DNA of 31,801 nucleotides from an archaeon (GTDB lineage Archaea > Iainarchaeota > Iainarchaeia > Iainarchaeales > 1-14-0-10-31-34): contig JBDRFE010000067.1 in NCBI GenBank assembly GCA_043819075.1, forward strand, positions 1 through 31,801. The letters are read 5' to 3'. Position 1 is the stretch's first letter, and each line of letters begins with the position of its first letter. The notes beneath the pieces were generated by a model. That model was not told where the DNA came from, searched no databases, and saw only the letters and a list, made by a program, of their open reading frames with translations. The position numbers and the translations under genes are program-made. Below, in pieces: positions 1 to 4,417 of this stretch.

Positions 1-161
1 ACGTCAATTGTAAATCTCCTGATGATTTTTTTTTCACTTAAATCAGAGATTCTTTTCCTTACAGTTCCTTCTGAAGTCTTTATTTTTGCAGCTATTTCAG
101 TGTTTGAAGCCCTTGAATTTTTTTCAAGCAGCCTTAAAATCTTTAAGTCTGTTTCATCCAT
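1..161 (-). CDS. Lrp/AsnC family transcriptional regulator (N-terminal HTH; continues beyond window start)
   Basis: Hand translation from ATG at 161: MDETDLKILRLLEKNSRASNTEIAAKIKTSEGTVRKRISDLSEKKIIRRFTID, a typical AsnC-type HTH. Not in the ORF track because it is truncated. Confidence 0.9.
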   Translation of the reverse strand, partial: MDETDLKILRLLEKNSRASNTEIAAKIKTSEGTVRKRISDLSEKKIIRRFTID

Positions 162-194: not shown

Positions 195-209
195 TTACGT
201 TTTTCGTAA
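195..209. promoter_or_regulatory. Palindromic Lrp-type operator TTACG-TTTTT-CGTAA
   Basis: Perfect inverted repeat with a 5-nt AT core between the divergent lrp and peptide/PqqD promoters; same ACG-N5-CGT layout as Methanocaldococcus Ptr1/Ptr2 sites. Confidence 0.6.
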
Positions 210-304
210 CACTGTTTTCTTTTTTGCCCAAATATTTAAAAATATTCTACTAAATTAGTATTTATGTTGTATTTTTATTGATTTTTTTTATGGGGGTGCA
301 TCAA

Positions 305-367
305 ATGAATTCACAGCTATTGCTTGAAGAAATAGGAAGAATCGATTTTGTTCATTTTATGGGCTGA
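305..367 (+). CDS. Putative RiPP precursor peptide, 20 aa (MNSQLLLEEIGRIDFVHFMG)
   Basis: ATG at 305, TGA at 365-367. Strong SD-like GGGGGTG at 292-298 in otherwise AT-rich DNA, TATA-like TATTTAAA at about 233-240, and position directly upstream of the PqqD and radical SAM genes. Confidence 0.7.
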   Translation: MNSQLLLEEIGRIDFVHFMG

Positions 368-395
368 AGCCCATAAACCTGTTTTTTATTTTTTG
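356..395 (+). terminator. Hairpin TTTATGGGC-TGAA-GCCCATAAA followed by a T-rich tract
   Basis: Perfect 9-bp stem (356-364/369-377) with the peptide stop codon in the loop, followed by GTTTTTTATTTTTTG. Confidence 0.55.
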
Positions 396-448
396 TTAAA
401 TTTTTTTTAAGTTTTATTAAATGTTTTTTTGCCTTAAAGTGTTGAATT

Positions 449-712
449 ATGTTTTTACTGAAAAGCCCTGAAGTTTTCTGGGTAAAAAAAGGAAAGGATT
501 TTGAGTTATTCAACGCAAAAACCAAAACAATTTTCAGGGCAACAAAAACTGCAGTTGACCTGGTTAAATTATGCAACGGGAAAAGACGCATTGAAAAAAT
601 TTTTGAGTTAATGCAGGAAAAAAAAGATTTTAATGGAAGCAAAAAAGACTTAACTGAATTTATTTCCCTTCTCAAAGAAAAAAATATTTTAGGTGAAAAA
701 AGTGGGGCTTGA
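449..712 (+). CDS. PqqD family protein / stand-alone RiPP recognition element (RRE)
   Basis: 87 aa; beta-rich N-terminus then TAVDLVKLCNGKRRIEKIFELM...DLTEFISLLKEKNIL, matching the PqqD pattern (TA..I..LCDG..TVEEI...L...DV..FL..L...GLI). Confidence 0.8.
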   Translation: MFLLKSPEVFWVKKGKDFELFNAKTKTIFRATKTAVDLVKLCNGKRRIEKIFELMQEKKDFNGSKKDLTEFISLLKEKNILGEKSGA

Positions 713-1988
713 AAGGGAAAAAAGCAGGTTCTATAATTATCCTCCTTTTCTTCCTTCAGTGAATCATTCAGAGTTATTGAATGCATTGCAGGAATCATCC
801 GGCAAAAAAGAAGCCGGCTTATACATTCACATTCCTTTCTGCAAAAAACTCTGTTTTTTCTGCCCTTACACTAAATACGTGAAAGAAAGTTCAGTGCATG
901 AAGCCTATGTTGAGGCATTAAAAAAAGAAATCCTTCTGGTTTCCTCTTTTCCTTCAGTCAAAAATACAACAATTACTTCAGTTTTTTTTGGCGGTGGAAC
1001 GCCTACAATGCTTTCCACTCAACAGTTATCTGAACTGCTTTCTTTTTGCAGGAAAAACTTTTCTTTTGCAGAAAACATTCAGGTTTCAGTTGAAGCAAAC
1101 CCTGCCACAACAGAAGAAAAAACTTTTCTTGAATTAAAGAAAGCCGGCTTTAACAGAATAAGCTTTGGAGTACAGTCTTTTGACAACAAAACCCTGAAAC
1201 TGCTTGGCACAGCCCATTCATCTGAACAGGCTGTTAAAGCAGTTAATTCGGCTAAAAAGTTTTTTTCTGAAATAAACATTGACTTAATGTACAGGCTTCC
1301 GGGGCAGACTGTTTTTGCATGGAAAAAAGATTTGCTGAAAGCAGTTTCTCTTAATGTATCTCATATTACGACTTATGCCCTTGATTTAGTTCAGGGGACA
1401 ACGCTTTTTATTTTGAATAAAAAAAATGCTTTGCAAAAAATTCCTTCTTTTGATGAAGAAAAAAAAATGATGGTTTTGGCTGACAGGCTTCTTTCAAAAA
1501 AAGGCTTCAAAAGGTATTTGGTTGACCAGTTTGCTTTGAATGGAAAAGAAAACAAGTATGCGATTCAGACTCTTTTAGGGAACGTACTTGGATTAGGCTG
1601 TGGGGCTTTCTCGCATTTTAATGTATTTGAGTTCAAGAATTTTTCTGTTCTTGAAAAATACTTTGAAGCAACAGGAAAAGGCTTTCTTCCGGCTGAATCA
1701 GGGAAAAAGCTTTCAGAAAAAGAACTTATGGAGCGCTTTATGATAAAACATTCAATGCTGTTGGAATTCAGTGCAGATGAATTCAAAAAACAGTTCGGGA
1801 AAAGCGTGTTCAAAGTTTTCGGCAGGCAGTTAAAAAAACTGAAGGCACTTAAGTTAATCTCGGTAAAAGGAAATAAAATCAGGGTTACTTCAAAAGGAAG
1901 AATGTATATCTATAACATCCACAGAAGCTTTTACCCAAAAGAATTCAATCAGGTAATACAAGGCTTTGAAAAGGCAGGAAGTGGTTAA
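693..1988 (+). CDS. HemN-like (class C) radical SAM enzyme; probable start GTG at 702
   Basis: LYIHIPFCKKLCFFCPY (CxxxCxxC), FFGGGTPT, EANP, RISFGVQSF, NIDLMYRLPGQT and a HemN_C-like C-terminus. GGTGA SD at 692-696 precedes the in-frame GTG at 702; overlaps the PqqD stop. Confidence 0.9.
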   Translation: MKKVGLEREKSRFYNYPPFLPSVNHSELLNALQESSGKKEAGLYIHIPFCKKLCFFCPYTKYVKESSVHEAYVEALKKEILLVSSFPSVKNTTITSVFFGGGTPTMLSTQQLSELLSFCRKNFSFAENIQVSVEANPATTEEKTFLELKKAGFNRISFGVQSFDNKTLKLLGTAHSSEQAVKAVNSAKKFFSEINIDLMYRLPGQTVFAWKKDLLKAVSLNVSHITTYALDLVQGTTLFILNKKNALQKIPSFDEEKKMMVLADRLLSKKGFKRYLVDQFALNGKENKYAIQTLLGNVLGLGCGAFSHFNVFEFKNFSVLEKYFEATGKGFLPAESGKKLSEKELMERFMIKHSMLLEFSADEFKKQFGKSVFKVFGRQLKKLKALKLISVKGNKIRVTSKGRMYIYNIHRSFYPKEFNQVIQGFEKAGSG

Positions 1989-2054: not shown

Positions 2055-3668
2055 ATGAAAAAAATAATTTTGTTGCTTGCATTGGTTTTGTTTTTTTCAT
2101 GTTTTGCTTCTGCTGTAATGGTTCCAATCGGGGCTCCAAAAAAAACTTTGACTGAAGAAGACAGGTGGAATTTAGGCGGAGGGTATAGTTTGGCGGTTAT
2201 GGATATAACCATAGAGGAAGTAGACAAGGTTTGGATTAGTTTTTTTAAAGACAGCACATTACTTGATGATGAAGTCTTAGGCGAAGGAGATGTTTATTCT
2301 TATGAAGATATTTTCGCTACTAAACTTGATGTGGTTTTTGCCGGAGCAATTAGTAATCTGGCTCAATTTACTGACAGTTCAATTAGTTCTGAAGTTATTG
2401 GTTCAGAAGAAACCCCTTTAATGGTTTCAATTAACACTCCAAAAAAAGTTTTGGGGGTGGGAGAAAAATGGAATGTTGGAGGGTATTACGTTGTTTTTGT
2501 TAAGGAAATAGATACAACAACAAATCCAATGCAGGCATGGGTTATATTTATGTCTGGGTGCAGCAAACTGGATGATGCAGTGGTAGCTTTAGGAGGAATT
2601 TATTCTTTTGGGGATATTTCTGGGGAAATTTTTACTACTACAATTGATTCAATTTTTAATGGAATGAACAATGATTTTGTTCAGTTTAAAAACAGTTCAA
2701 TCACAGATTCTGCAAGCGTGGTTCATACTTCATATATTTCAGAAGAATGGATTTGTGCTGAATGGGGTTTATGCATTAATGGAGAACAGTCAAGGGAATG
2801 CACTAATTCAAGTCCTGCATGTGCAACCAATTCTTTTATCAAGCCTGCAGTAATCCAGGACTGTGTTGGCTCATGCACTGAAAACTGGAGTTGCTCGGCT
2901 TGGTCAGCCTGTACTGGCGGAAAACAAACTAGAACCTGCACTGATTCAAGTGGGTGCGGCACTGCATTGGATAAGCCTTCAACAGAAAAAGATTGTTCTG
3001 TATGCAAAGAAGATTGGTCTTGCAGTGAATGGGCTGAATGCATTAACGGAGTGCAAACAAGGGAATGCAGTGACTTGAGTTCCTGCGGCACAGAAATAAG
3101 AAAACCTGAAACAGAACAAGCCTGTGGAATAGAAGAATGTGAAGAAAAATGGTTTTGCAGTGAATGGAGTTCATGCATTAACGAAAAACAAACCAGGACA
3201 TGCGAGGATTCAGCCAAGTGCAAGACTTTTAACCAAAAACCTTCTCTGACAAAAAAATGCACTGAAGAAAAACCAAAAACTTTTATTGAAAGAAATGAAG
3301 CAAAAACAGAAAAAAACTCAAATAATACTTTCACTTTAAAAGTTGAAGATGTTTCAGTTGAATCGCTTTCTGAACTGATTGAAAAATCAGGGAAGATTTT
3401 TGTTGTCACTTCAAAAGGAAGCAATGAAATCAAAGTTCTTCCATCAACTGCGTTAATCAAGGCAAATTTTACAGGCAAAGCAGACAAAATCCATATAGAA
3501 GAAGCATATGATGGGAAAGCATTGTATGTTGTTTCAGGAAAAAAGAACGGATTGTTTTTGCTGATTTTTCCTGTTGAAGCAGAAATAAAAGTAAGCATTG
3601 ACGTTGAATCAGGGGAAATTGTTTCCACAGAAAAGCCATGGTGGAGCTTTCTTGCATGGGGAATATAA
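2055..3668 (+). CDS. Secreted/surface protein: two S-layer-duplication-like domains, four Cys/Trp-rich repeats, C-terminal KPWWSFL domain
   Basis: Signal peptide MKKIILLLALVLFFSCFASA from ATG 2055; tandem repeats PKKTL..RWNLGGGYSL..VWISFFKD...LDDEV and PKKVL..KWNVGGYYVV..AWVIF...LDDAV; four W.C..W..C....Q.R.C repeats. Confidence 0.75.
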   Translation: MKKIILLLALVLFFSCFASAVMVPIGAPKKTLTEEDRWNLGGGYSLAVMDITIEEVDKVWISFFKDSTLLDDEVLGEGDVYSYEDIFATKLDVVFAGAISNLAQFTDSSISSEVIGSEETPLMVSINTPKKVLGVGEKWNVGGYYVVFVKEIDTTTNPMQAWVIFMSGCSKLDDAVVALGGIYSFGDISGEIFTTTIDSIFNGMNNDFVQFKNSSITDSASVVHTSYISEEWICAEWGLCINGEQSRECTNSSPACATNSFIKPAVIQDCVGSCTENWSCSAWSACTGGKQTRTCTDSSGCGTALDKPSTEKDCSVCKEDWSCSEWAECINGVQTRECSDLSSCGTEIRKPETEQACGIEECEEKWFCSEWSSCINEKQTRTCEDSAKCKTFNQKPSLTKKCTEEKPKTFIERNEAKTEKNSNNTFTLKVEDVSVESLSELIEKSGKIFVVTSKGSNEIKVLPSTALIKANFTGKADKIHIEEAYDGKALYVVSGKKNGLFLLIFPVEAEIKVSIDVESGEIVSTEKPWWSFLAWGI

Positions 3669-3785: not shown

Positions 3786-4100
3786 TTGTCCTTTATGTTT
3801 TGTAGTGATTTTGTAGTGAATGTTTTTTGGACTCAGCATGCGTTGGAAAGGTTTCTTGAAAGGGCCCTGCTTTACGGCTTTTCCAGAACTGACTTGGAGC
3901 AGGTTATAAAGAAACAGGAAGTCAGAATCAGTAAAGGCTTTGACAAAAAATACAATAAAAACAAGTTTGAGACAGTTGGAATGCTGTTCAACAAGTTTTT
4001 TACTGTCCAGAAAGCTGAAGACAAGAAAAACATTGTTGTTATTACTTTATGGGAATCAAGCAAAAACGAGGTGGATTTATGGTTTTCAAAACAAAAATAA
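3786..4100 (+). CDS. DUF4258 / RelE-superfamily toxin-like protein (start may be 3795 or 3816)
   Basis: VFWTQHALERFLER...DLEQVI...IVVITLW, the HA.ER pattern of DUF4258-type toxins; overlaps the downstream Zn-finger gene. Confidence 0.65.
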   Translation: MSFMFCSDFVVNVFWTQHALERFLERALLYGFSRTDLEQVIKKQEVRISKGFDKKYNKNKFETVGMLFNKFFTVQKAEDKKNIVVITLWESSKNEVDLWFSKQK

Positions 4101-4417
4101 AATGCCCTGTTTGTTCAGGTGATGCTGTTCTTTCAAAAGAGAATTTAGAACTGTTTGACGGCTTAATTAAGTTGAAAAACAATCCAATGTACAAATGCAA
4201 TAAATGCAGGGAATCTTTTGCTAATGGAAAAATGGCTGATGAAACCCTAAGCAAGGCAGGAAAAGAATTTAATTTTTCAAGGCAGATTGTTTCAACTGGA
4301 GGCAGTCTGGCAATAACCCTTCCAAGCGATTTGACTAAATTTTATAAGCTAAGGAAAGGCGGGAAAATAAAACTCGTTCCAGAAGGCACACGCTCGCTTA
4401 AAGTGGAAATCTGCTGA
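4079..4417 (+). CDS. Antitoxin-like protein: YgiT/MqsA-type zinc finger fused to an AbrB/MazE DNA-binding domain
   Basis: SD GAGGTGG before ATG 4079; CPVC...YKCNKCRESF zinc ribbon followed by RQIVSTGGSLAITLPSDLTKFYKLRKGGKIKL (AbrB motif). Confidence 0.75.
   Translation: MVFKTKIKCPVCSGDAVLSKENLELFDGLIKLKNNPMYKCNKCRESFANGKMADETLSKAGKEFNFSRQIVSTGGSLAITLPSDLTKFYKLRKGGKIKLVPEGTRSLKVEIC

Follow-up and report, generated by a model that had tools for sequence, protein, structure and literature searches.

A candidate RRE-dependent peptide cassette with a HemN-like radical SAM enzyme in a DPANN archaeon

What does a HemN-like radical S-adenosylmethionine (SAM) enzyme do beside a PqqD-like protein and a 20-residue open reading frame (ORF) in an archaeon with a reduced genome? 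The question is raised by the first 2 kb of contig JBDRFE010000067.1 (assembly GCA_043819075.1, order Iainarchaeales), which was analysed over its 31,801 nucleotides, hereafter the window. A sequence-only reading had proposed that the three genes form a minimal system for a peptide that is made by the ribosome and modified after translation (RiPP), with the PqqD-like protein as the RiPP recognition element (RRE). We find that they belong to a real, rare cassette, probably of the RRE-dependent radical SAM peptide type. On the evidence of sequence and structure models, we consider it likely that the product is an RRE-assisted RiPP whose sole maturase is a class C (two-SAM) enzyme adding one carbon to an aromatic core, probably at His. 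The genome of the window (G000, 91% complete) was compared with that of a second species of the same genus (G001, 81% complete). The placement among DPANN archaea agrees with the name of one member of a close homologue's cluster, Candidatus Diapherotrites archaeon.

The candidate precursor gene (305..367, forward strand; 20 residues, MNSQLLLEEIGRIDFVHFMG) follows the Shine-Dalgarno (SD) sequence GGGGGTG (292..298, forward strand), which lies 6 nt ahead of its ATG. The 3' end of this genome's 16S rRNA reads GATCACCTCCT, and 16 long ORFs have G[GA]GGTG ahead of their start, whereas three control motifs with rearranged letters gave counts of 0, 1 and 2; GGGGGTG is therefore a functional SD in this genome. 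An ORF of 15-40 residues outside long ORFs occurs at three of the 65 sites that combine an SD with a start, and the other two appear, by eye, to lie inside RNA genes. Coordinates, the 16S 3' end and genome-wide SD usage thus confirm the hidden 20-residue ORF with its strong SD. A 29-residue form from the in-frame TTG at 278 was rejected, as this TTG lies upstream of the SD and G001 has nothing equivalent, its start being preceded by a stop. Both readings, of 20 and 29 residues, were missing from the protein collection searched.

The same small ORF recurs with the enzyme. Among 101 relatives, a close enzyme was found in one genome, G001, with 58-59% identity to the window enzyme. The 247-bp gap between the genes for an Lrp-family regulator and the enzyme in G001 contains GGAGGTG at the place equivalent to the window SD, a GTG immediately after a stop, and a 19-codon ORF, (M)NPNNVVKKLKADFVHFMG. 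The SD, start and frame are preserved despite a 3-nt indel, and the C-terminal DFVHFMG with its stop is identical in the two peptides. This block (codons 14-20 and stop, 344..367, forward strand) matches G001 at 23 of 24 nucleotides, compared with about 65% in the stretches flanking it (86/132, 22/36 and 37/55). The expectation that a homologous enzyme would have a conserved small ORF ahead of it was thereby borne out, as was the proposed division into leader and core: DFVHFMG is invariant, and the leader varies, its hydrophobic spacing kept and its charge reversed (LLEEI in the window, VVKKL in G001). The back-translated core pattern turned up in 2 of the 215 phylum genomes searched, and its reversed control in none. 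Both are the genomes with the close enzyme (612-614 bits; next best 358), and neither pattern nor enzyme occurs apart from the other. Finding such a block at the predicted place has p = 4.5e-4 at a background identity of 0.65.

Could the ORF have arisen by chance in AT-rich intergenic DNA that both species inherited? Its presence in two genomes only, and the roughly 65% identity of the surrounding intergenic DNA itself, would fit such an origin. Yet the SD, start, frame and stop are all kept, no other SD-led ORF of 15-40 residues lies outside long ORFs and apparent RNA genes, and the co-fold result given below also speaks against it, so that we find a chance ORF scarcely credible. A further record (record 25 of run X6; 499 bp, depth 3.3) covers 104-594 with 44 substitutions, and its listed indels (at 289, 302, 369, 374, 387 and 424) all fall outside the peptide ORF, which lends weak support to conservation of the frame. 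Record 24 of the same run was not counted as an independent case, since it resembles the G001 form (Lrp, core motif and enzyme, with the RRE skipped). Runs X2, X3 and X5 gave no long pieces across the peptide ORF, no small ORF with the core was seen at 24 other HemN-like loci screened, and the core motif was not found in viral_contigs.

If the peptide is a precursor, its leader should engage the adjacent RRE. The gene at 449..712 (forward strand) encodes a stand-alone protein of 87 residues that matches PF05402 (PqqD) at 23.9 bits against a cut-off of 23.4, in line with its first assignment. Its model (pLDDT 65) has three strands followed by three helices, in β3-α3 order. The best eight Foldseek rows are all RRE-bearing (lasso-peptide B1, CteB and TigE chains), all at E > 0.1, and a VIA-align search with this low-confidence model reached a best Z of only 4.5, an uninformative value. 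Homologues exist at 86% and 74% identity, and the protein is related to the N-terminal domain of a fused protein, P0010, and to an RRE of Nitrospirae. PqqD itself is a trans-acting RRE (PMC8326336). A profile search for longer RRE proteins returned P0010 alone, itself part of the query. One match to the RRE, in genome G058, was discarded for its 2 internal stops and an E of only 0.1 with the profile. An ATG at 421 lies one base off the RRE frame; the start of the RRE varies by slippage in a T run, since a related contig is one T short at 424 and the homologue P0124 starts at ATG 421.

Peptide, RRE, enzyme and two SAM molecules were co-folded, with a mark that is reached by 116 of 157 solved complexes and by 2 of 215 mismatched pairs. 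The co-fold scored 0.68 (0.68, 0.66, 0.71), compared with 0.02 for the best of three controls; the runs share at least 80% of contacts, and the partner pLDDT is at least 64. The lowest-error contacts are made by peptide residues 5-10 (LLLEEI; 317..334, forward strand) along RRE residues 27-32, the third strand (β3), and Leu7 packs on RRE residues 35, 71, 74 and 75 of helices 1 and 3. In RRE-leader complexes the leader occupies the β3/α3 cleft (PMC12710340, PMC8326336). The suggestion that LLLEEIG is an RRE-binding leader is thus supported by the model, which lays LLLEEI on the β3 strand.

The HemN-like (class C-type) enzyme is encoded at 702..1988 (forward strand; 428 residues from GTG 702, 431 from 693). 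The gene had been drawn from 693 as overlapping the PqqD gene; the overlap holds, but the likely start is GTG 702, with an SD (AGGTGA) at 691-696 and the 428-residue form on record as P0004. The HemN-like assignment proved sound: Radical_SAM and HemN_C are the only Pfam domains, SPASM or twitch domains being absent, and the model (pLDDT 93) has the HemN fold, with a TM of 0.79 to HemN. The nearest solved sequences are those of HemN and the nocathiacin enzyme NocN. The CxxxCxxC motif is kept in 11 of 11 members of the enzyme's clade, and so are the equivalents of NocN Tyr34, Arg153 and Asp196 (positions mapped by eye from the alignment). In NocN these three residues belong to SAM-II, and Arg171 belongs to SAM-I (PMC12871812).

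Another explanation would be that the enzyme is a conventional HemN or HemW heme chaperone that happens to lie beside the PqqD gene and the small ORF. The enzyme exceeds the cut-off of the HemW model TIGR00539 (225.4 vs 205.4 bits), and its relatives are automatically named HemW or coproporphyrinogen oxidase. It stays, however, under the cut-offs of the HemN model TIGR00538 (207.7 vs 324.95) and of HutW (210 vs 400), and the HemW motif HNxxYW (PMC10114718) is missing in all 11 clade members, with ENKYAI in the window enzyme. The clade also stands apart from HemW-sized proteins in the tree, and the peptide motif and the enzyme co-occur. Neither ALAD nor porphobilinogen deaminase was found in G000 (91% complete) or G001 (81%), compared with detection in 11 of 14 control genomes. 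Because HNxxYW is missing and the early heme-pathway genes were not found, HemW is unlikely despite the HMM pass, and we judge this explanation as a whole very improbable.

Relatives of the enzyme are linked to RREs as well. A FastTree of 153 HemN-like proteins (cluster duplicates, and all but 12 HemW-sized proteins, excluded) places the window enzyme in a clade of 11 rows with support 99, together with P0005-P0010, P0137, P0143, P0027 and P0139. P0010 carries an extra N-terminal 80 residues that resemble the window RRE (pairwise E 3e-5), with no Pfam match of their own. P0027 occurs in 1 of 390 genomes of its class (Thermodesulfovibrionia), at G268:C224, where a stand-alone PqqD-like protein scores 20.4 bits, below the PqqD cut-off. 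Leave-one-out RRE profiles cross-detect, at 24.0 bits for the G268 RRE, 29.5 for the window RRE and 16.1 for P0010. Among 197 HemN-like loci outside the clade (1.56 Mb) they gave no match at E < 0.1, a count in which narrow profiles could miss unrelated RREs. DNA was at hand for three loci of the clade, and an RRE is present at two of them, G001 being the exception. Judged from these sequences, the enzyme clade is tied to RREs: stand-alone in the window, fused in P0010, and stand-alone in the Nitrospirae cluster.

The order of genes in that cluster (G268:C224:1-5250, L231) is a radical SAM/SPASM gene, a B12 radical SAM gene, the PqqD-like gene, a flavin-reductase-like gene and then P0027, so that three radical SAM classes stand in one apparent operon; the C-terminal tail of the 624-residue B12 radical SAM protein looks RRE-like by eye. 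The peptide profile had no match in G268 at E<=5.

The clade is also small. Among the matches listed from metagenome_contigs and genome_contigs (at least 80 loci each, generic HemW-type, best segments 27-40% identical) there was no clade locus. All 13 HemN-like loci in viral_contigs were distant, and all 428 plasmid records were under 60% identical to the enzyme (best 33%). At E<=1e-105, a 351-genome sample of another bacterial phylum, a set without a positive control, contained none of its members. In 22 further genomes of the archaeal phylum, the HemN-like genes (best 358 bits) belong to different clades.

Is the cassette a unit, and how far does it extend? Divergent from the peptide gene lies an Lrp/AsnC-family regulator gene (3..161, reverse strand; PF13404, 58 bits), cut by the contig start to its N-terminal helix-turn-helix part. 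It is 68% identical to the Lrp of G001, and orthologues are confined to G001 and G000; of four other genomes of the genus tested, three have paralogues at 29-32% and one has none at E<=1e-10. Between the divergent genes, a 15-bp palindrome, TTACG-N5-CGTAA (195..209, unstranded), is a candidate Lrp operator; it has a single match in the window (0.12 expected; present in 10 of 100 shuffles), and its inner TACG-N5-CGTA is kept in G001. A TATA-box-like T/A run (235..242, forward strand), seen directly, is a candidate archaeal promoter of the peptide-RRE-enzyme transcript, and TTTAAAA is kept in G001. In G001, Lrp, peptide and enzyme form a clean 1.9-kb insertion (C15:5300-7223) between two genes that we take, from motifs, to be presenilin-like and VTT-type; in G000:C29 the orthologues of these two adjoin each other, stop to stop. 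As this insertion point differs from that of the window, the cassette is a discrete module found at two different sites. The proposed three-gene system therefore stands as regards peptide, RRE and enzyme and has to be widened to four parts, since the divergent Lrp gene belongs to it too. By gene order and orthology, Lrp <- -> peptide - RRE - enzyme is a self-contained, patchily distributed cassette.

The statement that no protease or transporter is adjacent was also upheld, with none in the cassette, and no RRE, protease or transporter lies inside the cassette limits in G001. The presenilin-like protease was considered as a leader peptidase and rejected: it is a flanking housekeeping gene, on a separate contig from the cassette in G000. 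Pairing with a stand-alone RRE holds for the window and fails at the G001 locus, which has peptide and enzyme with no local RRE; an RRE is therefore not obligatory in cis. In G001, its part may be taken by the C-terminal domain of the enzyme itself or by another PqqD of that genome. This second PqqD, part of another cassette, is present in G001 and six other genomes of the family, including G000. It scores 61 bits and is flanked by a kinase-like P-loop ORF and a radical SAM/twitch gene in G000:C39:1-2088 (L221) and G001:C26 (L222), with a nucleotidyltransferase-like ORF upstream (kinase-like and nucleotidyltransferase-like are names given by eye). Similar PqqD proteins occur in G002, G003, G005, G006 and G007, and the arrangement resembles a SynChlorMet-type cassette.

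The missing RRE in G001 bears on the main rival to a RiPP: that the small ORF is a stalling upstream ORF, or its 3' end an RNA or DNA element, which together with a hairpin and the Lrp tunes the expression of an enzyme with some other substrate. TnaC-type leaders are stalling peptides with a conserved C-terminus at the stop codon. Here too, conservation is limited to the last seven codons and the stop, and is near-total at the nucleotide level (23/24), and a regulator, Lrp, belongs to the unit. In the window, a terminator-like 9-bp hairpin covers the peptide stop and is followed by a T run (356..386, forward strand). This hairpin is absent from G001, however, and a regulatory leader gives no role to the RRE that adjoins or is fused to three clade members, nor would it call for the canonical leader-RRE pose of the co-fold. 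We regard a regulatory leader as unlikely. In a RiPP cassette, the hairpin may instead set a high ratio of peptide to enzyme transcript. Folding of the whole region was no more stable than that of shuffles (z -0.35), and the four Rfam matches were all well under the gathering score.

The peptide might also bind the RRE or enzyme as an adaptor, an inhibitor or a detached active-site lid, with the enzyme methylating a small molecule or host protein. Such a role would suit the unplaced core in the model, the loss of NocN Arg171, the loose N-terminal 'trip-wire' of HemN, and the fact that known class C enzymes mostly use small molecules or pre-modified scaffolds. Against it, a peptide bound by an RRE is usually what the partner enzyme modifies (PMC8326336, PMC12710340), an invariant aromatic C-terminus after a variable leader is the pattern of a precursor, and the Nitrospirae relative is located among peptide-type maturases. 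An adaptor or lid is in our estimate distinctly improbable.

Several observations weigh against the RiPP that we favour. The peptide is seen in two genomes, both of one genus, and the G001 leader is oppositely charged at a locus with no RRE. Over all 24-nt windows, the chance bound for the core block is 0.02-0.56 (background identity 0.60-0.70), and because the core has a single synonymous change, constraint on the peptide is inseparable from constraint on the nucleotides. The co-fold lies beyond its calibration range, which has no chain under 30 residues, and its pass may reflect likeness to solved RRE-leader complexes; its score falls to 0.02 when the enzyme is replaced, though the confident contacts are with the RRE, and core residues 16-20 are left unplaced. 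In the enzyme, Arg171 of NocN, which holds the SAM-I carboxylate, is a Thr (Arg in 3 of 11 clade members), and the HemW model is passed. For the Nitrospirae cluster no precursor is visible, as its contig begins inside the first gene.

How, then, would the RiPP be made? In the model, the leader LLLEEI would bind the RRE as a strand beside β3. Class C enzymes work with a pair of SAM molecules, the second of which carries a methylene radical that adds to an sp2 carbon, and their products include methyl groups, methylene-esters and cyclopropanes (PMC10114718). By analogy, the enzyme would bind two SAM, and the 5'-deoxyadenosyl radical from the first would generate a methylene radical on the second (PMC10114718, PMC12871812), which would add to an sp2 carbon in the core. 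Possible sp2 acceptors there are His17 and the two Phe residues, and Asp14 or the C-terminus could act as nucleophile. On the premise that the enzyme acts on the peptide, we tentatively favour the His17 imidazole, the group closest to the rings of established substrates (thiazole, indole and pyrrole). A Phe ring seems a rather unlikely acceptor, and HemN-type oxidative decarboxylation, at Asp14 or the C-terminal Gly, somewhat less likely still. One-carbon transfer would yield either a core methylated at carbon (+14 Da) or one joined to a neighbouring carboxylate by a methylene bridge of the NosN type (+12 Da). Since the cassette has no protease or exporter, the product would probably be trimmed by host proteases and kept intracellular. 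We infer that a cofactor-like or signalling product inside the cell is likelier than a secreted antibiotic; perhaps the cassette's Lrp senses the modified peptide.

Known systems share parts of this design. The PQQ core (PqqA/PqqD/PqqE) and the MftA/MftB/MftC set of mycofactocin likewise combine a very short precursor, a stand-alone RRE acting in trans and a single radical SAM enzyme. Their enzymes carry SPASM/twitch domains, however, whereas the cassette enzyme has HemN_C instead; without a SPASM domain, the cassette is not a PQQ- or mycofactocin-type member. Unlike those systems, it has no downstream oxidase, peptidase or creatininase; the window RRE scores far below the PqqD equivalog (20.5 vs 46), and the peptide lacks PqqA and MftA motifs (no NCBIfam or Pfam match). 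The class C thiopeptide methylases (TbtI, NosN/NocN, TpdI/L/U, PbtM2/3) share with the cassette enzyme the HemN-like two-domain form, the two-SAM residues other than Arg171 and, if the peptide is the substrate, action on a ribosomal peptide, but act late on thiazole- or indolyl-bearing intermediates in large clusters, NocN and NosN without a leader. The thiopeptide context of YcaO, dehydratase and a Cys/Ser/Thr-rich core is lacking here, as DFVHFMG has no Cys, Ser or Thr. With no YcaO, dehydratase or other maturase in the cassette, the enzyme would receive its peptide unmodified, from an RRE dedicated to it. HemW and HemN have the fold of the cassette enzyme but differ from it in motif, score, clade and genomic setting, as set out above. 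C10P/YtkT, Jaw5, ChuW/HutW and MenK/MqnK share HemN-like one-carbon transfer to sp2 carbons but act on non-peptide substrates, and the cassette has no partner methyltransferase, polyketide synthase or heme-uptake genes.

No RRE-paired HemN-like sole maturase was found in the literature, of which subscription papers and supplementary tables could hold one. HemN is not mentioned in the accessible part of PMC7470986, nor in the main text and one supplement file of PMC12710340 (both RRE-Finder papers), and the accessible parts of PMC9062424 and PMC11002830 describe no such maturase. In the literature examined, class C enzymes of peptide pathways tailor thiazole or indole scaffolds late, and stand-alone RREs serve SPASM enzymes. 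The case for a new RiPP class seems to us evenly balanced: an RRE-guided class C maturase, the one that defines the class, would take an unmodified peptide and attach a carbon from SAM to the His or a Phe ring of DFVHFMG without prior activation, possibly closing a macrocycle through a methylene bridge, and the cassette's Lrp would sense the resulting signal or cofactor inside the cell. If true, a bare peptide of 19-20 residues served by an RRE and a HemN-like enzyme would represent new peptide chemistry, namely radical one-carbon transfer onto an ordinary aromatic side chain, or formation of a methylene-bridged ring. The three-gene system of 1.7 kb would be easy to reconstitute and could become a tool for peptide methylation. 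It would also mean that proteins auto-annotated as HemW hide peptide maturases, and that reduced-genome DPANN archaea retain regulated peptide-modification modules whose precursors fall under gene-calling limits.

Other HemN-like genes have settings of their own. In family f20 and its neighbours of the same archaeal order (L004-L009, L198-L213), another HemN-like clade recurs in a unit where it stands head to head with a U32-peptidase-like gene pair and tail to tail with a gene for a protein resembling NHL repeats (names by eye); no small ORF is obvious there. HemN-like fusions to DNA-alkylation-repair, CMD, NUDIX and PLD-like domains were seen, as was one apparent tandem duplication (P0159, P0195, P0167, P0201, P0140). 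A Cutibacterium cluster (L140:3135-12252) has two tandem HemN-like enzymes and a B12-type radical SAM-like gene, with cupin, cyclase, hydrolase, MFS transporter and luciferase-like genes by eye, and tandem HemN-like pairs seem to occur in Myxococcus (P0024/P0036, one contig).

Directly downstream of the cassette, positions 2055-3668 of the window encode a secreted S-layer-domain protein with four Cys-rich WxCxxWxxC repeats, which is unlinked in G001. At 3786-4417, a DUF4258-like gene followed by a zinc-ribbon/AbrB-like gene may form a toxin-antitoxin-type pair, all matches being below cut-off. Elsewhere, the G001 MCM gene has a large insertion, intein-like by eye (L230:166-3849), that its G000 orthologue (G000:C29:22538-32336) lacks; in the same G000 region, the match to topoisomerase VI B is interrupted by about 1.5 kb.

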